A stretch of DNA of 64,000 nucleotides, from contig OZ241892.1 in the NCBI GenBank assembly GCA_965203485.1, positions 2,528,001-2,592,000 of the forward strand, in the 5' to 3' direction. The stretch comes from Longimicrobiales bacterium (lineage in GTDB: Bacteria; Gemmatimonadota; Gemmatimonadetes; Longimicrobiales; Gaopeijiaceae). The notes below the pieces were generated by a model. The model was not told the DNA's origin. It worked only from the letters and a program-made list of their open reading frames with translations, and ran no database searches. A program made the position numbers and the translations under genes. Below, one piece after another: positions 50-42,000 of the stretch (its first letter is position 1; the number at the start of each line of letters is the position of its first letter).

Positions 50-907
50 CTAGGCGGCCGACCCCTGCCAAGGCGCGTGCTCCAGCGACCGGCGCAATCC
101 AAGACGGGCAAGGCCTGTGGCCACTTCCCTCACGTCTGCCGGCTGCAGGCGGCCGTTCTCGCGCAAGCGCGCCCTTAAGTGCGACACGATCGCGGCTCGA
201 GCCTTGGGCTGAGAAATGACGGTCACTTGCTTGACGCCCAACATCGCCAGCGTCTCCCAAGTCTGCCGGTTCACGTGAAGAACGCTGTGGGCCTCGTTCG
301 CGGATATGTCCGCGCCAGCGACGCGCGCCACTTCTTCTGCCACATGGCCTCGCCACCAAGCGCGAGCAAGCGGGCAATCCGAGAAGACCGAAGTCTTGCC
401 CCGCACATGGGGAATGCCGCCCGTGTGCCGGAGGAAGTTTCGAGTCTTCGCCTCCAGGTCCGTGCCCCGCCGGCTGCCGAGCGCCGCCTCCAACCGATGA
501 CCGGCTTGACCGAAGCGTCCTTGTTCAATCCACTCGACGTGGCATAGCAACCAGTACACGGGCCGCGACGCGAACCGGGGCCCTATTAGTCCGCTCCAAG
601 TCGCCCACAGCTCGCGTTCCAGCTCTACCGGCGGGGTCTGGCACTCGTCGGGCGTCAGCTCGGGGCGCGGTAGTTCCGGCGCACCGATCGCCTTTCTGCC
701 GGTATGCAGGCTCTTCCTCAGGTAGGCCCCGAGTCCTTCGTGTCCCCCCTTGATCGCCGACTGCAACTCCTCTTGCCGTTCTCGAATCGGCTTCCAGACG
801 TGCCGGTTCCGTTCTCCCGGCTTGCCGTGGCGCTTTGGTTCGAAAACGATCCCCCGTTGCCAGTTGCTGAACTTCGGACTGGCGGCGTCGATCAGCGCGC
901 TATTCAC
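50..907 (-). CDS. Hypothetical protein, last gene of the GHKL operon (possibly DUF6339-like)
   Basis: GTG at 907 preceded by GGAG and overlapping the upstream stop (900-902). Motifs 'LWATWSGLIGPRFASRPVYWLLCH' and 'PLARAWW' resemble DUF6339 from memory; tentative. Confidence 0.65.
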   Translation of the reverse strand: MNSALIDAASPKFSNWQRGIVFEPKRHGKPGERNRHVWKPIRERQEELQSAIKGGHEGLGAYLRKSLHTGRKAIGAPELPRPELTPDECQTPPVELERELWATWSGLIGPRFASRPVYWLLCHVEWIEQGRFGQAGHRLEAALGSRRGTDLEAKTRNFLRHTGGIPHVRGKTSVFSDCPLARAWWRGHVAEEVARVAGADISANEAHSVLHVNRQTWETLAMLGVKQVTVISQPKARAAIVSHLRARLRENGRLQPADVREVATGLARLGLRRSLEHAPWQGSAA

Positions 908-1700
908 CGTCTTCTCCACCCAATGCCGCACGCCACCGGAAGGGCTCAAGCAACGTGGCCACCAAGGCAGGATCGTAGCTCTCCAGATCGTCCCACAAGC
1001 TGATGCCGGGCCGCATGCCTTCCAGGCGGTCGCGAAGCATTCGCGCCAGCGGAAGCTCGTCCTCTTCGTCGTCGCATTGGAACTCGCGTCGAAAGTGCGC
1101 ACAGGCTCCGACGAGCGCGGCGATCCTCACGGGTCGGTCGTCGCGATGCTCGTAGACGTCGGACGCCATGTTGACCACGAAGCGGAAGTGGCCGCTGCCG
1201 TGATCCGGCGCCACTGCCATCCGGCCCCTCTCCAAGTCGTCCGCGTGCCGAAACGTGAACAGCGACTCAAGCAACGCGTTGGCCCGCCACGTGTCTCCCT
1301 TGGCCAACCAGTAGCCGCACGGCACACGAAGCTCGCCGACGCCCTCATAAACGGAACTCAGGCCCGTTGCGTGCAACGAGAGGTCCTTGGTGGCCACGAG
1401 TCCCGGCACGACGAATATGTCGCCGTCCACGTCGTTGAAGTCCCACTTGACGACCTGGCTGGCGTTCGGGGACGTCTCGGTCTTCGCCATGAGGGTCTTC
1501 GGGCAACGGACGTCGACGCCCCAGGCCGCGTCCCCGCTGTCGATCAGCCGTTCCAAGGCCGGGGCCTTCGACAGGCGATGAATCACCGTTGCCTGTCCGG
1601 CGCCGACATTGACGTTGGTCTCGTACGCGGCCTCGGTCCAGTCCATCCGAGAGCCGTCTTCGAGGAGAAGGGGCAGGGAATCGGCGGTGTGGTCAGTCAT
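900..1700 (-). CDS. Hypothetical protein (266 aa) in the GHKL operon
   Basis: ATG at 1700 overlaps the stop of the GHKL gene (ATGACTGA). Globular, beta-rich, acidic protein-like sequence. Confidence 0.7.
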   Translation of the reverse strand: MTDHTADSLPLLLEDGSRMDWTEAAYETNVNVGAGQATVIHRLSKAPALERLIDSGDAAWGVDVRCPKTLMAKTETSPNASQVVKWDFNDVDGDIFVVPGLVATKDLSLHATGLSSVYEGVGELRVPCGYWLAKGDTWRANALLESLFTFRHADDLERGRMAVAPDHGSGHFRFVVNMASDVYEHRDDRPVRIAALVGACAHFRREFQCDDEEDELPLARMLRDRLEGMRPGISLWDDLESYDPALVATLLEPFRWRAALGGEDGE

Positions 1701-3633
1701 TGGAGGCTCCGGCGGATTCGGCGGGACAACCGGTCGGCGGATCGGCCGTCCGCCGCCGGACAAGGTCTATTTCCACGGCGTTGGCATCCCGGACGGGATC
1801 GGCGAGGATCACGGCAAAGTCGCGACAGTCCGCAGGCAAATTCGTCTCGAAGCCGTCGTCTCGCGGCCGAGCCACGCCGTCGTCGAACCGAACCTCGGCG
1901 ATGCGAAGCCAAGTCGGCGACAGCGGCGCCTCGCAGGTCTCGTCGGAGCCGGAGGGAACTCGCACCCTGACCCCCAAGTTGTCCTTTGCGGACAAGACTG
2001 CCGTCGGTTGCCAGGCAACGCGTATCTCGTGGATGCTCCCTTCTGCGCCGGGCGCGACCCGCCATGACAGCCGACCCGGCGCGCCTCGCCCCGGCTTGGG
2101 CGCGGCGCCGGCCTTCTGCTTCCGCTTCTTGCCCTTTCTGTCCGGCGGATCGTTCGATTCGTCGTTGTCCGCCTTGCCCATCGCCGTGATGCGCTTCCGG
2201 CCCGTGCCCGCTCGCGGCCGGTACTTCCCCACCCTTTCGGCCCCACGGTTGCCGCCTCCCCACATGGCGAAGTCGCCGGGAGTGTATTCCATGGACTCAT
2301 CTTCCTTGCCGGCCTTCGATCTCAGTTCGTCAGCGATCTGCCGAAGGGCGGCGAGCAGCTTCTTGTTGTCTTCAGAACCGAGCCGGCCCCTGTTCAGGCC
2401 TCGATGCTCCGGCCCTTCGGCATCGCGCACCAGACGCGCCAGTTCGCCCGACTCGACCACAACCACTGCGGCGATGGGCTTGTTCCCCCCAAAATGCCGG
2501 GGTTCCAGTTCGTCGGCATTGTTGGCGATCCACATGCCGCTACGAAACACTTGCACCTGCGACTTCGGCTTGTCGTGTTGCGAGTCCAGGGACAAGACAT
2601 GCGCTTCGGCGCCCGAGGCCAACGCAAACCGTTCTCCCTTCTCGAGCGTTTCCCACGCTTGGTACGCTTGTGCACCCGGGAACCAGCCTCCCTTTTGCTC
2701 GCCCCTCTTCTTAAGCCGGTCGTGTTCGAGAATCGCACCCAACGTGTCTCGGTCGACGACCGTCTCGCTTTCTTCGCCACGACGAATCGTCACCGTCATT
2801 CTTCTCTGCCAGATGGCCACCAAGAAGTTCTTCGCCGCAACGCGGGCGATGGCCGAAACGGGATCGGCGTCGTCGATCCGGAAGTTGTTGAAGCCGGTGA
2901 TGCACACTACGGTGCCCGTGTCGTCGAGGCGGTCGAGTTCGCGAGCGAGCAAGGGCGGCGCGCAGTCGGGATACTTCGCGTCGAAGAGAGACGGGACGCT
3001 GTTCGGGTCCCTGCGGCGAAGCCAGTATCCGTGGCCGCCACGCTTGTCCTTCCTGTACGACGCCAGGATGGCGTGACCGCTAGCCACGTCCCGCAAGCTT
3101 CCGCCAGAATCCCTTGATCGCCCGGCGTACAGCACATAGCGAAGATCCGACGCGGCGAAGGCCGTCAGATGACCCACTCCAAAGGCTCCCGCGCCGACTT
3201 CGTCCTTAGCGGTGTTGCCTTCGGTCAGAACCCTTTCAATGCTTTCGTGGTCAAGTCCTACGCCGTTGTCCCGGCAGAACAAGAGGCGAACGGTCGCCCC
3301 CCCCCCCCCCCCGTTTTTCAAAACTCGCCTAATCCTGTCAATCACCCGCTTCTCCGAAACGCTCTGCTTCCCCTGTTCCCGCTCGGCGACTGCTTGGTCG
3401 AAGTGATCGCGATACGAGTCGATGCCCGGCACCTCGTCCAACGGCACTTCCTTGACGGAGAAGACCACCTCGGCGGTCCGGCGGTCGGCTTCGCCCGCGG
3501 CGTCCAAGGAGTTCTGCAGGAGTTCGCGAACGACGGGCTCCGGGTTGGCGGCCCACTGTGTCGTGGCAAGAGTCGAGAAGCCCTGAACGGGGCCTTCGAA
3601 GTACAGATCGTCCCCGTGAGAGCGAGCAACCAT
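1693..3633 (-). CDS. GHKL (HSP90/MORC-like) ATPase domain protein
   Basis: N-box 'VVRELLQNSLDAA', G1 'DNGVG', G2 'GAGAFGVG', 'GTVV'. ATG at 3633 lies 14 nt after the upstream stop. Confidence 0.8.
   Translation of the reverse strand: MVARSHGDDLYFEGPVQGFSTLATTQWAANPEPVVRELLQNSLDAAGEADRRTAEVVFSVKEVPLDEVPGIDSYRDHFDQAVAEREQGKQSVSEKRVIDRIRRVLKNGGGGGATVRLLFCRDNGVGLDHESIERVLTEGNTAKDEVGAGAFGVGHLTAFAASDLRYVLYAGRSRDSGGSLRDVASGHAILASYRKDKRGGHGYWLRRRDPNSVPSLFDAKYPDCAPPLLARELDRLDDTGTVVCITGFNNFRIDDADPVSAIARVAAKNFLVAIWQRRMTVTIRRGEESETVVDRDTLGAILEHDRLKKRGEQKGGWFPGAQAYQAWETLEKGERFALASGAEAHVLSLDSQHDKPKSQVQVFRSGMWIANNADELEPRHFGGNKPIAAVVVVESGELARLVRDAEGPEHRGLNRGRLGSEDNKKLLAALRQIADELRSKAGKEDESMEYTPGDFAMWGGGNRGAERVGKYRPRAGTGRKRITAMGKADNDESNDPPDRKGKKRKQKAGAAPKPGRGAPGRLSWRVAPGAEGSIHEIRVAWQPTAVLSAKDNLGVRVRVPSGSDETCEAPLSPTWLRIAEVRFDDGVARPRDDGFETNLPADCRDFAVILADPVRDANAVEIDLVRRRTADPPTGCPAESAGASND
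3297..3312 (-). repeat. G16 homopolymer on the coding strand of the GHKL gene
   Basis: 16 consecutive C on the + strand. Reads in frame as NGGGGGAT. Confidence 0.9.
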
Positions 3634-3646
3634 TTGGCGTCGGTCC

Positions 3647-4954
3647 CTAGTCGGTGCAGTCGCAGGCAGGTGCGCCCGTGGCGTAGCGGCCCAGGTCGGG
3701 CGCGTTCCCCCGGGCAATCTCGGCAAAGGTCGGGCCCCTCACGCCGAAGAAGCCGAATCGCGTGGTCCCCTCGCCGCTGCGCGCGGCCACCTTGCGCTGG
3801 TAGCGCTCCTCCATCTCGATCCACCATCCAATGTCGGAAGGCGCACCGGTTTGCCGCCCGGGGTCGGCCGCGTGGGCGGCCTTCGCAAGAAACCGCGTGC
3901 CCTTCATGAAGCAGAAGACGCAGTTGCCCGCGTGGTCCGGTCCGCCCAAGTCGAAGTTGCGGTCCTTCCAGAAGCCGCGAACCGCAGTGGCGTCGAACCC
4001 CCAGTCCGCCAGCGGAAAGCAGGGATGTTCGCCGGGGGGTTGCGTGTGAACCGAGCAGGACTTGCTGGCGCCCTCCGCGAAGAACGACCGGGAGTTGATC
4101 TTGGCGATGCGCCTGTCCTCGTCGGCGCGCAGGCCCAGCGCCGTCACGTGTTCGGCCGCGCCGGCTCCCCACATCGGCGCTGGGCCGGACGGCGCTTCGC
4201 GGTTCGGGACCGGGGCATCCGTGTAGTCGTGCCAGCGTTGGGCGGGCCGGGCAACGGGACCTCGAGTCATGCACTGCACGCGGTCTCGGTAAGCGTCGTC
4301 CGACGCCGATCCTCGGTTTCGGCGGTACTGGACCAATGCCGAGTCCGGCGTGACGTAGCGACGGTCGCCGTAGTGGCCGGCGTGCTCGGGACCGTCGGTG
4401 GCGCCCAGCCACTCGGAGAGCAGCTGGTGCGACGGATAGAGCTTCAGCTTCGCCGTGCACGACCGGCTGTGAGGGTTGGACAACATGCCCTGGTACGAGA
4501 GCATCTCCTCGAAGACCTCCCCGCTGGACCGAAATCCACGCGGGTCGTCCTCCACGGGCTCGGACCGCACCAGCCGGTACGAAGGACGGCGGACGTAGAC
4601 TCCCCGCGAGGCGTCCTCCACAGTGCAGAACTCGAACCAGAAGAACGGAATGCCGAAGTCGTGCTCGAGGCGGCGCTTGCATTCGCGGGCGAAGTCGTAG
4701 GTGGCCGGATGCTCCGCCGAGGTGTTCGCGAACAGAACGACGTCTCCGCGCTCGGGATCGAGAAGGCCATCCTCCGCCAGCAGGAACGCCAGCGCGGCCG
4801 AAGAGCGTCCGCCCGAAAACTTGACGACGTGCGGAAGCGGCTCGTGCTCGGGGGCGCGCGAGCGGATTGCCCTGGCGCGGGGGACTCGGGCGGGACGGAT
4901 CAAGCGACGGCGACGTGACGTGATGATGGGACCGTGACGAGCGGACAATCTCAA
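3647..4954 (-). CDS. PAPS-reductase-like PP-loop (adenine nucleotide alpha-hydrolase) protein, probably Fe-S binding
   Basis: PP-loop 'VVKFSGGRSS', 'FANTSAEHPATY', 'RSCTAKLKLYP', 'GLRADE', 'GNCVFCFMK', C-terminal 'CDCTD'. Start codon uncertain. Confidence 0.75.
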   Translation of the reverse strand: MRLSARHGPIITSRRRRLIRPARVPRARAIRSRAPEHEPLPHVVKFSGGRSSAALAFLLAEDGLLDPERGDVVLFANTSAEHPATYDFARECKRRLEHDFGIPFFWFEFCTVEDASRGVYVRRPSYRLVRSEPVEDDPRGFRSSGEVFEEMLSYQGMLSNPHSRSCTAKLKLYPSHQLLSEWLGATDGPEHAGHYGDRRYVTPDSALVQYRRNRGSASDDAYRDRVQCMTRGPVARPAQRWHDYTDAPVPNREAPSGPAPMWGAGAAEHVTALGLRADEDRRIAKINSRSFFAEGASKSCSVHTQPPGEHPCFPLADWGFDATAVRGFWKDRNFDLGGPDHAGNCVFCFMKGTRFLAKAAHAADPGRQTGAPSDIGWWIEMEERYQRKVAARSGEGTTRFGFFGVRGPTFAEIARGNAPDLGRYATGAPACDCTD

Positions 4955-4973: not shown

Positions 4974-6752
4974 CTACGCGCCAGGGCCCGAGACGCCCAC
5001 GGCGTAGTCGAACACGCTGGACGCGCCGATCGCTTCGCGGAACCACACGGTGGCCGTGTTCCCGAGGGCGTCGGTCAGCTTGAGCGGCTCGTTCAGCTGG
5101 AAGACGACGGGCTGCGCGGCCCCGTCGTTGACGGCGACGTTGTCGGCGTGGACGTAGAGGCGGTCGAGCGTGTCGCGAATGGGATTCAGCCTGCCACGAA
5201 TGCCCGGCGCATGTCCCGTGCGGCTCGGGATGATCTTGGAGCCGCCTTCCGCGACGGGACGCATTCGCACTTCCAGGGCGCCACCAGCGTCGTCTCCAGG
5301 CTCGTAGTCCGGCACGACCTCGGCGGCGAAACCCGGCGCGGCGCAAAAAACGGTCATGGGCAAGTTGGCGTAGAGTTCCAAGTCGGCGTGGCCGAAGGCG
5401 TCGGTGCGCGCCTCGAGATAAGTCTTGTTGGGGTAGACCAGGAGGACATCGACGTCGCGGACGGGCTTGCCGGTGTCGGCGTGGACTACCGCCACCCGCG
5501 CCGCGACGCCTTCCGGCACGGGTCGGCGGGCCGCGGGAAGGACCAGCTTCAGCTCGCGCTCGCCGACGAGTTCGAAGACGGGCTTGCGGCCGGCCAGCGC
5601 GAACGTCTCGTCCTCGATCACGGCGATTCCCTCGCCTCTGCGCTCGATGAAGTATTGCCGCCCGCCCGCGCCCGCGACCTCGCCCACGGGACATTGGCCG
5701 AGCCGCGACGCCAAGAGTTCGTTGCGCGTGAACTGGCTGATGCGCATGTCCTCCACCGTCATGGAATTGCCAAGGCCGCCGGGAGAGTGAAGCTCCAGCC
5801 GGTCGTCGAACATGAGCAGGCGTATCTTGGAGCCGGACACGGCGTAGTCGCGGTGGACCACGGCGTTGACCAACGCCTCGAAAACGGCGCGCTCGCTGTA
5901 CTGGGGCACGTCACGGCGCGCAGGCTCCTTGCGGGCGGCCACGCGACGGTTGCGCGCAACGAAGCGCACGGCGCCGCGAATCTGCTGGTCCAGTGGGCCC
6001 GTGATGTCCATGGCGTCGAGCTGCTGGTTGCCGTCCATGCGGTCGCCGCGGTAGCAGACCGCCTGAATGAACGCGTTCGCAAGCCACTCCCGGGGGTCCC
6101 GGCCGCCCAACAGCACGCCTCCCACGGTTGCGCGAAGCACGCCATTGGCATCCTCCTTGGCGAACTTCAGCTTGCTCAGCGCCGTCTCGGGCGGGTCGCC
6201 CGCGCGCGAACTGGCGTAGCCGCGCCACAGCTCCGGATCCAGACTGCCCACGGCCGTGCCCGCAACGACCTGGGTGTCGGTGGACTCCGCGTCCGACTGG
6301 CCGCGCAACTGGGACAGCCGCCGGATTTCCACCGGACCCATGAGACGCTTGCTGCTCCCCCGCCGGCGATAGCATCCCCCCGGCGACTGGTGCACGGCCT
6401 TGCCCGACGCGACGTCCACGACCAGCACCCCGCGGCCGGGCTCGTCCGGAACTGCAACTCGATGCACGCCGACGTCGAGAGGCGGCTTGACGCTGTCGTT
6501 GCAGAGCTCGGTCACGAAGCGGTCCACGGCATCCAGCTCGTCCGGAGACAGCGGCTTCGCCTCCCGCCGGTCGGTGACTCCGAACACCAAGCGGCCGCCC
6601 GAGGAGTTGGCGAACGCCGCCAGCTCGTCGGCAATGAGGTCTCGCACCGACGACGGAACGCGGCCACCCTTCACCGGAACTTCCTTGAACTCGAGCTCGG
6701 AATCCTCTCCAAGCCGGACTTGCCGCCAGAACCGGTCCTCGTCGATGGGCAT
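4974..6752 (-). CDS. AlbA_2 (Schlafen-like) domain + HATPase_c_4 (RecG C-terminal-like) protein with an extra C-terminal beta-sandwich
   Basis: 'GEDSELEFKE', 'AFANSSGGRLVFGVTD', 'FEALVNAVVHRDY', 'LHSPGGL', 'RGEGI'. SD GGAGG before the ATG. Confidence 0.85.
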   Translation of the reverse strand: MPIDEDRFWRQVRLGEDSELEFKEVPVKGGRVPSSVRDLIADELAAFANSSGGRLVFGVTDRREAKPLSPDELDAVDRFVTELCNDSVKPPLDVGVHRVAVPDEPGRGVLVVDVASGKAVHQSPGGCYRRRGSSKRLMGPVEIRRLSQLRGQSDAESTDTQVVAGTAVGSLDPELWRGYASSRAGDPPETALSKLKFAKEDANGVLRATVGGVLLGGRDPREWLANAFIQAVCYRGDRMDGNQQLDAMDITGPLDQQIRGAVRFVARNRRVAARKEPARRDVPQYSERAVFEALVNAVVHRDYAVSGSKIRLLMFDDRLELHSPGGLGNSMTVEDMRISQFTRNELLASRLGQCPVGEVAGAGGRQYFIERRGEGIAVIEDETFALAGRKPVFELVGERELKLVLPAARRPVPEGVAARVAVVHADTGKPVRDVDVLLVYPNKTYLEARTDAFGHADLELYANLPMTVFCAAPGFAAEVVPDYEPGDDAGGALEVRMRPVAEGGSKIIPSRTGHAPGIRGRLNPIRDTLDRLYVHADNVAVNDGAAQPVVFQLNEPLKLTDALGNTATVWFREAIGASSVFDYAVGVSGPGA

Positions 6753-39076: not shown

Positions 39077-42000
39077 ATGGGCCGCCCTCCGGTTGGACCG
39101 TTCCGCCGCGGGCTGCAGTGGCGCCCGCCGCGGTCATGGCGCCCCCGGCGCCGGGCACCCGGCGGGCTCTCGTCCAGCCGGGGCCCGCGGTGGCTGCGGC
39201 GATTCCTGGTCTGGGGCATCTCGGGCTTCGCCGTCGCAGCGGCCGTGGGCGTTGTCGCGGCCGTCGTGGTCAGCCGGACGGCCGCCGGCCGCGAGGCCGC
39301 CCTGGACTGGGCGCTCTCCACGCTGCGGCCATCCGTCAACGGCTCCGTCGCGTTCGAGTCGGTCGGCCCCGGCGGCCTGCTCGGCGGCGCCACGCTGCGG
39401 GGCGTGCGCGTGGAGGACCACCTCGGCCGGGCCGTCCTCACGGCGGACTCCGTGCGCGCGCGCTACTCGCTCTTCGACTTGCTGGGCGGCGGCCGCGCCA
39501 TCGCCGATCTGCGCCTGTGGTCGCCCGTGGCGACGATCCGGCCCGGCGTCGAGCGCCTCCTGGCCCGCAACGCGGACAGCACCGGGCCACACCCGCCCGG
39601 CTCCGCAGACAGTCGGCCCGACGAGGCCCCCCGCCCGCTCCTGCGCATCCGCGGCGTTCGCCTGCACGACGGCGCCGTGATCCTGGAGGGCCCAGAACGG
39701 CCGCCGCGCCGCATCGACGGCATCGAGGGCGACCTCGCTCGCGTGGACGTGTCGCCGGGAGAGGGGGTGCACTTGGCGGCCGAAGTCGCGGACGCCGCGC
39801 TTTCCTATCCGGCGCGCTCCGGCCGCATCGGCTTGGCGGCATTCCGGGGGTCCGCGACGATCGGGCGCGACGGCGTGAGCGTGGTCGCGAACGCCTTCCG
39901 GCTGGCGGGCTCGGAAGGCAGCGGGCGCGCGTTCGCCGAACGGGCGGGGGCCGGCTGGCGCTTCGACGTCGAGGCGAGCCTCTCGGAGCTGGCGCTTGCC
40001 GACCTGGCCTGGATCGACCCGCGCCTGGACCACGGAAGCGCGGCCGGCGACGTGCGCGTTGTCTGGGAGCCGGGCAGGCTGGCCGTCTCGACGCCCGGCT
40101 CCGTCGAGGTGGACCTCGGCGGCGGCGGCCGTCTGCGCCTCGGCGGCGAAGTGGTCCGGGACTCCTCCACGCGCTTTCGCGGCCTGCGCGTGGAAGCCCA
40201 AGCGCTGGCGTCCGCCGAAGTCGAACGGTGGACGGCGGCTCCCCTTCCCGTGGCGGGCGCCTTCTCCGGCGACATGCGCGTCGACGGCTCGCCCGCGCGC
40301 TTGGCGCTGGCCGGCACGGCCGCCCTCGCCGACCCTGCGGCCGGCGAGACGCTGGCGTCGGCGGCGGGAGCCGCCACCGTGCTGGGCCGCTTTGCCTTCG
40401 AGGACGCGGACGTTGAGCTGGACCCGTTCGACTACGGCCTGCTCCGTGCGGTCGCGCCGGGGGTGCGCTGGAGCGGGCGCGGGTCGGTCCACGTGCGCGC
40501 CGACGGCGACCTCCGCGAGGGCGTCGCGGTCGAGGTCTCTGCCGAGCACCGGTCGGCCTCGGCAGGCGACTCCAGCGTCGCAGTCGTCTCGGGCACGCTC
40601 TTCGGCGACACCGCCGTCGCCGTTCTGGACCTGGACGCCACGCTCGCCCCGCTCTCGCTGGCCGCGTTGCGGGACGCCCTGCCCGCCTGCCGGCCCTCCG
40701 GCGGCGATCCGCCAGCGCCGCTCGACGCCCCCGCTTCGACCGACGGCGACGATGCCGGCGCCGCCGCGCACGCTCCCCGCGCCGTTGCCGTCTCGGCCGC
40801 CACCCCCGCCGCGGACACCCCCGCCGCGGACATTTCGGAGGCGCCGGCCCAGGCTCCTGCCGAGGCTCCCGTCCGCTGCCGCCCCCGCTTCGACCTGGCC
40901 GGCGCGGTGCGCGGGTCGGTGTCGCTCGCGGGCCCGCTGGACCGTCTCGCCGTGTCGGTCTCCCTCGACACGCCCGGCGGCCCCGTCTCCGGCGAGGGCT
41001 CGGCCAATGCCCTCGACCTGTCCGACGGCTACGAGTTCGCGGCGTCCTTCGACGCCTTCCGGCTCTCGGACGTCGTGCCGTCGCTGCCCCAGCCCACAGT
41101 GGCGACCGGCTCGGTCCGCCTGTCCGGCCACGGTCTCGACCGCAACAGTCTTCGGGGCTCCGCGTCGGCCAGCGTGCGCTCCTCCACCGTCGGGCCGCTC
41201 GCGCTCGACTCCGCGGAAGCGTCCGCGTGGGTCGAGGACGGCGTCCTGCACATGCAGTCCCTCCTCGCCGCAACCGAGGGCCTGACGTTGGCGGGCCACG
41301 GCAGCTTGGGCCTGCGGGCGGACGCGCAGGGCGAAGGCTTGGCGTTGTCGCTGCGGTCGCCGTCGGTCCGCCCGCTGCGCTCCATCCTGATGGGACCGAA
41401 CTTGGTGGCGCGAGACGAGCTGACCGCGCTCGAACGCAGCATCCACGAGATGGACGGGGCCGATCCGGACACCTTCCCCACTGCCCGCGAAATTCGGTTG
41501 GACGGGGCGCTGGAAGGACGCGTCGATCTGCAGGGAGGACTGGAAGATCTCTCCATGCAGGTGTCTGCGTCCTTCGACGGGCCGGCGTACCGCTGGCATT
41601 CCGCGGCGGCCGCGTCCGTGGAGGCCGCCGTCAGCGGCATTCGGCTGCTCGGCCCGGACTCGGCGGCGGCGGGCCGCGACGACAGGGCCCAGGGCTCCGC
41701 CAACGCGGCGGCGGGCCCCGCGCGAACTGACGAGCAAGCCGCGCTCGCTGGCGGGCACGCGCCCGGTGGAACAAGCCGCTTCGCCGGAGTCGTCGTCGAG
41801 GGCACGTTCTCGGCGGACTCGCTCGTGCTGGGCGGCCGCGCCTTCGAATCCGCTCGCGTCGAGGGGAGCTACGAGTTCGCCGGGCGAGCGCAAGCCCGAA
41901 TCCGCGTTGCTCGCACCGAAGACGAGCGCTACGAGGCGGAGGGGGCGGCGAGTCTCGACGGCCCGCAGCGCAGCGTGACGCTCGACCGCCTGGAACTCGC

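Follow-up and report, generated by a model that had tools for sequence, protein, structure and literature searches.

Can an operon that joins a PP-loop enzyme of the 3′-phosphoadenosine-5′-phosphosulfate (PAPS) reductase type to a GHKL ATPase write a sulfur mark on DNA? The question is raised by a four-gene locus of a Longimicrobiales bacterium (Gemmatimonadota; assembly GCA_965203485.1), located in the window, i.e., the whole 64,000-nucleotide stretch of contig OZ241892.1 (positions 2,528,001 to 2,592,000) that was analyzed. This small operon is intact in the window and has the following features:

3647..4954, minus strand: gene 1, PP-loop (adenine-nucleotide alpha-hydrolase) protein of the phage NinC/SspD-like PAPS-reductase family, assigned by motifs, profiles, and fold
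1693..3633, minus strand: gene 2, GHKL ATPase with an ExxxH motif (EGPEH), a divergent PDC-M33A, assigned by motifs and a PADLOC profile
900..1700, minus strand: gene 3, a divergent PDC-M33B with no named family, assigned by a PADLOC profile
50..907, minus strand: gene 4, all-helical DUF6339-like protein in the PDC-M33C slot, assigned by profile-profile comparison and a fold model
3297..3312, minus strand: in-frame G16 run within gene 2, reading NGGGGGAT, a likely slipped-strand switch

Judged from the sequences, and with confidence slightly better than even, the operon is read here as a phase-variable sulfur DNA-modification system, phosphorothioate (PT)-like, in which genes 2–4 (the GHKL trio) would replace the P-loop ATPase of Dnd, Ssp, and BREX-4 and would serve as a scaffold, not as a killer.

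The four open reading frames (ORFs) at 50–4954 are all oriented on the minus strand, and the tight co-oriented layout claimed in an earlier note on this DNA is borne out by the ORFs, their junctions, and their overlaps. The stop of gene 1 (3647) and the ATG of gene 2 (3633) are separated by a 13-base gap, with AGGGA upstream, whereas the stop of gene 2 (1693) and the ATG of gene 3 (1700), as well as the stop of gene 3 (900) and the GTG of gene 4 (907), overlap by 8 bases each; the start of gene 1 is uncertain (TTG 4954 or TTG 4903). The GC content of the operon is 0.658 vs. 0.693 for the genome. A scan with gene 1, using one genome per species, confirmed 103 relatives, and 80 loci were kept, to which the counts out of 80 below refer (individual loci, within this set or outside it, are given by L numbers). 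Gene 1 is accompanied by the GHKL gene in 78 of these loci, by gene 3 in 75, and by gene 4 in 73, in the same order; loci with a missing gene are mostly at contig ends, and L042 and L068 have no match to gene 4 within the flank. The gene linkage claimed earlier is thus found as same-order co-occurrence across the 80 loci: the operon is real and conserved, and the linkage is not due to chance. The loci are distributed among Gemmatimonadota, Chloroflexota, Actinomycetota, Acidobacteriota, and Verrucomicrobiota, with one cut contig of Gammaproteobacteria, and many of the host taxon names are those of what we take to be sponge symbionts. The spread is patchy: a GHKL match occurs in 12 of the 47 genomes of the window's family, a gene 1 match in none of 400 other sampled Actinomycetota, and two strong matches among 401 sampled Pseudomonadota, for which the first look was stricter than for the other samples.

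Gene 1 contains the motifs ascribed to it in the earlier note (SGGRSS, RSCT, the CxxC of NCVFC, and the CxC of a terminal CDC), and S-G-G-R-S-S, C132, C311, C314, C397, and C399 are invariant among 33 aligned relatives. The core motifs are held in 70 window-type, 16 sister-type (the second PP-loop-containing layout described below), and 80 viral sequences, the terminal CxC being conserved in approximately half of the 80 viral relatives. PF01507 scores 20.3 bits against gene 1, below the cut-off of 22.5, and the CysH equivalog of NCBIfam is unmatched, in agreement with the expectation that the protein is not CysH; no match to DndC (TIGR03183) reached E 0.1 in either NCBIfam or PADLOC. The sole match reported in a genome-wide PF01507 search was an SspD-like gene at C1:369615 (C1 coordinates refer to this genome), with no cys cluster. 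Among defense models, the best profile is SspD of PADLOC (E 6e-9, 34 bits vs. 300–446 bits for true SspD on the same model), and the BrxP model is matched by the PP-loop stretch alone (E 0.005). The SspD of this genome shares all core motifs, and gene 1 is placed on a very long branch from it in a quick tree. The nearest family by sequence is phrog_424/NinC (E 2e-32), whose motifs SGGRxS, E-H/M-P, RxCT, GxRxDE, and NCxxCxxKG are all present; a viral relative links gene 1 to phage proteins that carry the NinC annotation and to lambda at 41091–41675, which we take to be ninC. The alignment of gene 1 with the 479-residue PAPS-Dam fusion p0018 of Vibrio phage 75E35.1 covers every motif (hhalign 99.4%, E 6e-22). 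According to the available part of Piel et al. (10.1101/2021.05.05.442762), a two-gene block with a 479-residue p0018 lets phage 44E38.1 escape Dnd, and the two p0018 proteins are probably equivalent, as judged from length, locus number, and build. Three low-GC relatives of gene 1 (P0162, P0183, and P0167) are fused behind a C5 cytosine methylase that is whole in one of them and partial in two.

The structural model of gene 1 (predicted local distance difference test, pLDDT, 89) shows a PAPS-reductase/PP-loop fold. Top matches are reductases of PAPS and adenosine-5′-phosphosulfate (APS) (Z 9.5–10.6, root-mean-square deviation 3.7–4.1, 169–179 aligned residues), closely followed by NcsA, TtuA, ThiI, TilS, and YcfA (Z 8.5–9.3) and by guanosine monophosphate (GMP) synthetases, and because the thiolases, GMP synthetases, and YcfA score so close behind, the substrate is not named by the fold. 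Foldseek returned nothing at E 0.001 for the model, and the single PDB sequence matched by the gene 1 profile was spurious. Gene 1 is predicted to have the PAPS-reductase fold, yet by sequence it is neither CysH nor DndC, and it is regarded as a putative adenylating, sulfur-inserting "writer."

Gene 2 carries the motifs RELLQNSLDA, DNGVG, GAFGVG, and TGT, consistent with its previous assignment to the GHKL ATPases; RELLQNSLDA, DNGVG, and GAFGVG show little or no variation among 48 relatives, E405 and H409 of ExxxH are invariant in 48 aligned rows, and an ExxxH-type match is present in 48 of 48 tree rows. ExxxH within the S5 region, added to the GHKL motifs, is the paraMORC2 signature in the available text of PMC2292703, and gene 2 is assigned by this motif signature, not by a profile, as a predicted paraMORC2-type GHKL ATPase. 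PDC-M33A of PADLOC matches gene 2 with E 2.4e-27 and 94 bits vs. 290–520 bits for methylase-linked members. Gene 3 is weakly matched by PDC-M33B (E 4.5e-4, residues 20–133; E 1.5e-5 for the sister form); no Pfam family is matched by more than one of 57 gene 3 members, and the ESM Atlas gives unnamed clusters only (0.93–0.94). The PDC-M33C models of PADLOC have no direct match to gene 4, the suspected DUF6339 likeness of which is upheld by profile-profile alignment with M33C/DUF6339-type proteins (hhalign 95.5%, E 1.3e-8) and by matches of 9 of its 45 family members to DUF6339 (PF19866; best E 2.6e-9). The gene 4 model (pLDDT 95) is all-helical with a best structural Z of 5.9, a common helical arrangement; Foldseek found nothing at E 0.001 and no clear solved fold, and the ESM Atlas gave no usable match. 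Profile, family, and gene 4 structure searches of the trio revealed neither a nuclease nor a toxin domain. By these profiles, genes 2–4 appear to be a divergent candidate PDC-M33ABC, and the earlier statement that the architecture matches no named system has to be withdrawn for the trio (A, E 2e-27; B, E 4.5e-4). The PDC-M33 models seen are A, B, and C, the next accession being PDC-M34A, and the PP-loop partner is unmodeled.

How a PP-loop enzyme came to be joined with this trio is suggested by three layouts. In layout i, a C5 methylase (Pfam) is located directly upstream of the trio in L149, L155, and L157; two of these three were tested, and both score as full PDC-M33ABC. Plasmid trios are found beside Dcm or N6 methylases in four of the five regions opened, the fifth being unannotated. 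The genome of the window contains a copy of layout i:

C1:3517702-3525695, minus strand: second GHKL trio, a distant copy, adjoined by methylases and a type II restriction endonuclease

An N6/N4 methyltransferase, the type II restriction endonuclease, the GHKL gene, an unknown gene, DUF6339, and Dcm are arranged there on one strand. Layout ii, the sister form, comprises five genes in 18 loci: the PP-loop enzyme, an IscS/DndA/SspA-like cysteine desulfurase, and the trio. The desulfurase adjoins the PP-loop gene in 18/18 loci (16 distinct at <90% identity) and carries the pyridoxal-phosphate lysine motif in all 18 and the S.G.AC cysteine motif in 17; its identity is given by Pfam (14/14 tested) and by PADLOC DndA and SspA (E ~1e-140 for the two tested), at scores below the IscS and DndA equivalog cut-offs. 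Layout iii is the four-gene form of the window, without a desulfurase. Layouts ii and iii occur in tandem in the L024 genome, and three IscS-like genes (37–40% identity) are present elsewhere in the genome of the window.

A FastTree of 48 GHKLs, with long branches, places the PP-loop-linked proteins in one clade (99) apart from the methylase-linked proteins, with layouts ii and iii as subclades, and a quick, not finished, tree of gene 1 shows matching groups (window type 100, sister type 99; 8/9 rows). Because the PP-loop-linked GHKLs form one clade with matching gene 1 groups, a single methylase replacement is indicated: the PP-loop enzyme would have replaced the methylase once and then travelled with the trio, a direction that we infer from trees that are both unrooted. 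The proposed alternation of the PP-loop gene with methylases thus stands in that gene 1 occupies the C5 methylase slot, and falls in that one old swap, with a single GHKL clade (99), appears likelier than repeated exchange. Gene 4 has tandem duplicates downstream in L020, L021, and L024 (two or three copies, fused in L021), and in plasmid trios an ORF of 62–80 amino acids precedes the GHKL gene (L108 6590-6832, L110 6707-6895, and L111 6687-6917).

Phase variation is suggested by the G/C runs. The run inside gene 2 (C16 on the forward strand), absent from the earlier note, was read as C16 or C18 in different sequencing runs, with two additional C in the contigs of X3 and X4 and not in those of X1 and X2; the four runs belong to one study with at most two samples, and because the data are at the contig level, slippage in cells and sequencing error are indistinguishable at this site. 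L001, L002, and L003 have G13, G21, and G21 at the same site, and all are frameshifted. Acidimicrobiia have a run of 10–18 G near residue 200 of gene 1, with 13 loci frameshifted, L044 in frame, and L062 breaking off there, and in some other loci C runs immediately precede gene 1. Counting related, non-independent genomes, G/C runs of at least 12 bases number 30 per 413 kb of operon vs. 7 per 847 kb of flank, and 30 of the 80 loci hold runs in or just before the operon, often frame-shifting. The genome of the window has 42 G/C runs of 14–30 bases vs. 1.7 expected for runs of at least 14, and seven of the examined runs fall within restriction-modification (RM) or PT genes, among them sspC and genes of both GHKL trios. 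The G runs are likely a slipped-strand on/off switch of the operon, which would act in cells. Furthermore, of 14 loci with a frameshift in the middle of gene 1, 10 have trio matches that are complete, free of stops, and confined to a single frame, which argues against the killing of unmarked DNA unless the shift is polar; with no nuclease domain found, the proposed role of the trio as an effector is doubtful. Elsewhere in this genome, runs in RM genes are at C1 319758, 624966, 2166441, and 3323431, that in sspC is at 368660, and the GHKL gene of the second trio has an in-frame 27-base run at its start. Further runs precede large surface-protein-like genes, and together the runs form a genome-wide contingency-locus set. 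C1:2327700-2332800 contains repeats of ~925 bases; every repeat has a G24-25 run and a short peptide frame that hardly differs among the repeats, which may represent a repeated precursor-peptide array.

Comparison with known systems defines what the operon is not. PDC-M33, a PADLOC candidate unnamed in the available main text of Payne et al. (10.1101/2024.01.29.577857), shares the order GHKL, unknown, and DUF6339, and its A and B models match genes 2 and 3, whereas the window scores are far weaker, gene 4 is unmatched by M33C, and a PP-loop enzyme stands in place of the methylase. In common with Ssp are an SspD-like PP-loop enzyme in which motif order and cysteine layout agree, an SspA-like desulfurase (sister form), and nearby DUF262 nucleases; however, the operon lacks the SspB nickase and SspC ATPase (no match in genes 2–4 by PADLOC), its SspD score is low, and the genome has a separate Ssp locus. 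Dnd/Pbe (DndABCDE with DndFGH or PbeABCD) shows the same logic of desulfurase, PP-loop enzyme, and ATPase, with DndB and Pbe as occasional neighbors, but the operon has a GHKL instead of an ABC ATPase, and DndC, DndD, and DndE are unmatched at E 0.1 in NCBIfam and PADLOC. The scanning core of DndD and CxC-DndE swaps between methylase and sulfur marks (PMC10853773, available part). In BREX type 4 (BrxPC), a PAPS-reductase-like protein takes the place of the methylase in a defense scaffold and writes PT (PMC12914056, available part), but the operon lacks BrxC, PglZ, BrxL, and DUF4007; BrxC, PglZ, and BrxL gave no PADLOC match, and BrxP matched by the PP-loop stretch only. The DndD/CxC-DndE core and BREX type 4 are precedents for a change from a methylase to a sulfur mark. 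The paraMORC2 ATPases of RM systems share the GHKL motifs, ExxxH, and, in the sister branch, methylase neighbors, whereas the partners described in the available text of PMC2292703 are a helicase, methylase, and nuclease, not sulfur enzymes. Phage NinC/phrog_424, including the p0018 PAPS-Dam fusion, has all core motifs of gene 1, which differs in a large extra insertion (approximately residues 150–230), in being cellular, and in its tie to the GHKL trio. The operon, likened to Ssp, Dnd, and BREX type 4, fails membership of each and is by its profiles a predicted divergent relative of PDC-M33. No description of this layout was found in the titles or opening lines of abstracts of the papers retrieved, subscription papers being outside the search, and it is undescribed in the available parts of PMC13551039, PMC12707154, PMC12137116, PMC12839542, 10.64898/2026.02.18.706556, and 10.1101/2024.01.29.577857.

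A sulfur-marking pathway may be outlined as follows. Sulfur would be provided by a cysteine desulfurase, dedicated in the five-gene form and of the host IscS/SspA type in the four-gene form; the desulfurase that PT systems require is linked in the sister form, and IscS-like genes are present elsewhere in this genome. Gene 1 would use its PP-loop and ATP for the adenylation of a DNA phosphate, and sulfur would be inserted in a DndC/SspD-like manner by way of its five cysteines, which would act as an iron–sulfur (Fe-S) cluster and/or persulfide relay. Together with genes 3 and 4, the GHKL ATPase would clamp and scan DNA and present the site, thereby performing the task of DndD-DndE or SspB-SspC; the older form of the trio would have worked beside DNA methylases. 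Restriction, if any, would be left to changeable neighbors such as the co-located DUF262/GmrSD-type, Pbe-type, and HNH nucleases, and the system may be toggled in subpopulations by the G/C runs that lie within either of the first two genes or just upstream.

The neighbors in the 80 loci include DUF262/GmrSD-type genes (24), a PT-binding HNH (NF045808; 10), PbeA-like (6), PbeC-like (4), and DndB-like (1) genes, and Dcm in none of the 80. L030 holds a DndB-like gene and, by eye, a GIY-YIG-like gene inside the operon. A PbeA-like helicase follows the operon in L033, L035, L037-L039, L043, L142, L144, L145, and L154, and is accompanied in some of these loci by a sigma-r4 protein or a PbeC-like ATPase. 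As proof of a sulfur mark, the PT-linked neighbors were rejected, Ssp or Dnd genes being present elsewhere in 7 of 10 genomes; the neighbor set is compatible with a sulfur mark and does not prove it. Other features concerned are as follows:

C1:363800-375200: Ssp-type locus of this genome, comprising SspA, SspC (interrupted at a G25 run), SspD, and a DndB-like gene into which an insertion sequence has moved
window 4974-6752, minus strand: AlbA_2/Schlafen and RecG-C-like ATP-binding protein, situated upstream of gene 1 at a distance of 19 bases
genome 2526541-2528001, strand opposite to the operon: ATPase gene, downstream of the operon

The AlbA_2/RecG-like gene is directly upstream of gene 1 only in the closest relatives and was rejected as an operon part because it is matched in 6 of the 80 loci only. 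A truncated third GHKL of another subfamily (C1:323043-323915; whole in L158, L161, and L162) adjoins a type IIG RM gene and, by eye, WYL genes.

Several points weigh against sulfur marking of DNA. In the available parts of PMC12914056 and PMC12707154, established PT writers use a P-loop ATPase; the sole ATPase of the operon is the GHKL, and no P-loop NTPase was found in it by Pfam, NCBIfam, or PADLOC. True SspD is encoded elsewhere in 7 of the 10 operon-bearing genomes tested, and DndC in 2 of 10; because of these genes and of the Ssp locus in the genome of the window, the PT-linked neighbors may serve other systems. Three hosts (G192, G274, and G302) carry the operon and neither SspD nor DndC. 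The window form lacks a desulfurase, which 1 of the 80 loci has, in a second, sister-form copy; the 18/18 count in the sister form was not blind because that group was picked partly by a desulfurase-sized gap, and L156 is a further PP-loop and GHKL locus without a desulfurase. The nearest outside family, phage NinC, includes a lambda protein, and phosphorothioate is not known from the DNA of lambda. Pairs of a PP-loop enzyme and a desulfurase are also responsible for the thiolation of tRNA and small molecules; NcsA, TtuA, ThiI, and YcfA, at the Z scores given above, come within about 2 of the best fold match. Long homopolymers are prone to sequencing error, which leaves the frame states unsure, and with 42 runs of at least 14 bases genome-wide, such runs are not special to the operon.

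Four other explanations were considered. Gene 1 may act in the style of YcfA or TtuA on a target other than the DNA backbone, thiolating or adenylating a base, a tRNA, one of the trio proteins, or a free nucleotide, with the product regulating the GHKL trio. The close fold matches to NcsA, TtuA, ThiI, TilS, and YcfA accord with this, as do phage NinC relatives of ~210–290 amino acids, for which a conserved ATPase partner was unseen in the two regions opened, and a desulfurase would suit any thiolation or Fe-S assembly; however, gene 1 replaces DNA methylases, is fused to them in cells and phage, and has SspD as its best profile among defense models, and such a substrate is considered fairly unlikely. 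Another possibility, which we consider quite unlikely, is that the trio is a stand-alone anti-phage system that senses or kills, with gene 1 as a captured phage anti-restriction accessory that might blunt PT-based restriction or tune the host Ssp. PDC-M33 is indeed modeled as three genes, trios without gene 1 exist (the second copy in L050, behind an insertion sequence, and L132), the phage relative is of an anti-Dnd type, and Ssp systems are common in operon hosts. Nevertheless, gene 1 is tightly coupled to the trio across several phyla, the gene 1 and GHKL trees show matching window- and sister-type groups, the sister form adds a sulfur donor, and the trio has no nuclease or toxin domain that could be found.

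Classical RM, as conceived in the earlier note, in which gene 1 marks self and the trio destroys unmarked DNA, appears very improbable: the trio stays whole in most loci with gene 1 frameshifted, and aromatic residues, glycine, and arginine predominate among the invariant positions of genes 3 and 4, with no acidic/histidine metal set, although both genes lack a known fold and could conceal a nuclease, and paraMORC ATPases are described as RM parts in the available text of PMC2292703. Housekeeping sulfur metabolism, i.e., a CysH-like reductase placed beside a defense trio by chance, is disfavored and scarcely credible. PAPS/APS reductases are the top fold matches, and phage members are often annotated as such; nevertheless, gene 1 falls under the Pfam cut-off without matching the NCBIfam CysH equivalog, its spread is patchy, as its absence from the other sampled Actinomycetota shows, and its link to the trio is fixed.

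Established PT systems number four, namely Dnd, Ssp, Tdp, and BREX-4, in the available part of PMC12914056, where the search behind the fourth demanded a P-loop NTPase beside a PAPS-like gene; a GHKL-based system would therefore be missed by it. It is a tentative possibility, held at somewhat less than even confidence, that the operon represents a fifth DNA phosphorothioation route, in which a NinC-type enzyme is combined with a MORC-family GHKL clamp across phyla of presumed sponge symbionts and is switched by G runs. The operon bears on a possible new DNA-modification route, on the roles of PDC-M33/paraMORC2 and DUF6339, and on the chemistry of NinC. Phase variation is well known for methylases and would here affect a sulfur mark; sspC of the same genome also has a G25 run. 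If sulfur marking is true, these bacteria would have a phase-variable sulfur epigenome, prokaryotic MORC ATPases would be tied to the writing of a DNA mark, and a function would be provided for the NinC family, which lambda carries.

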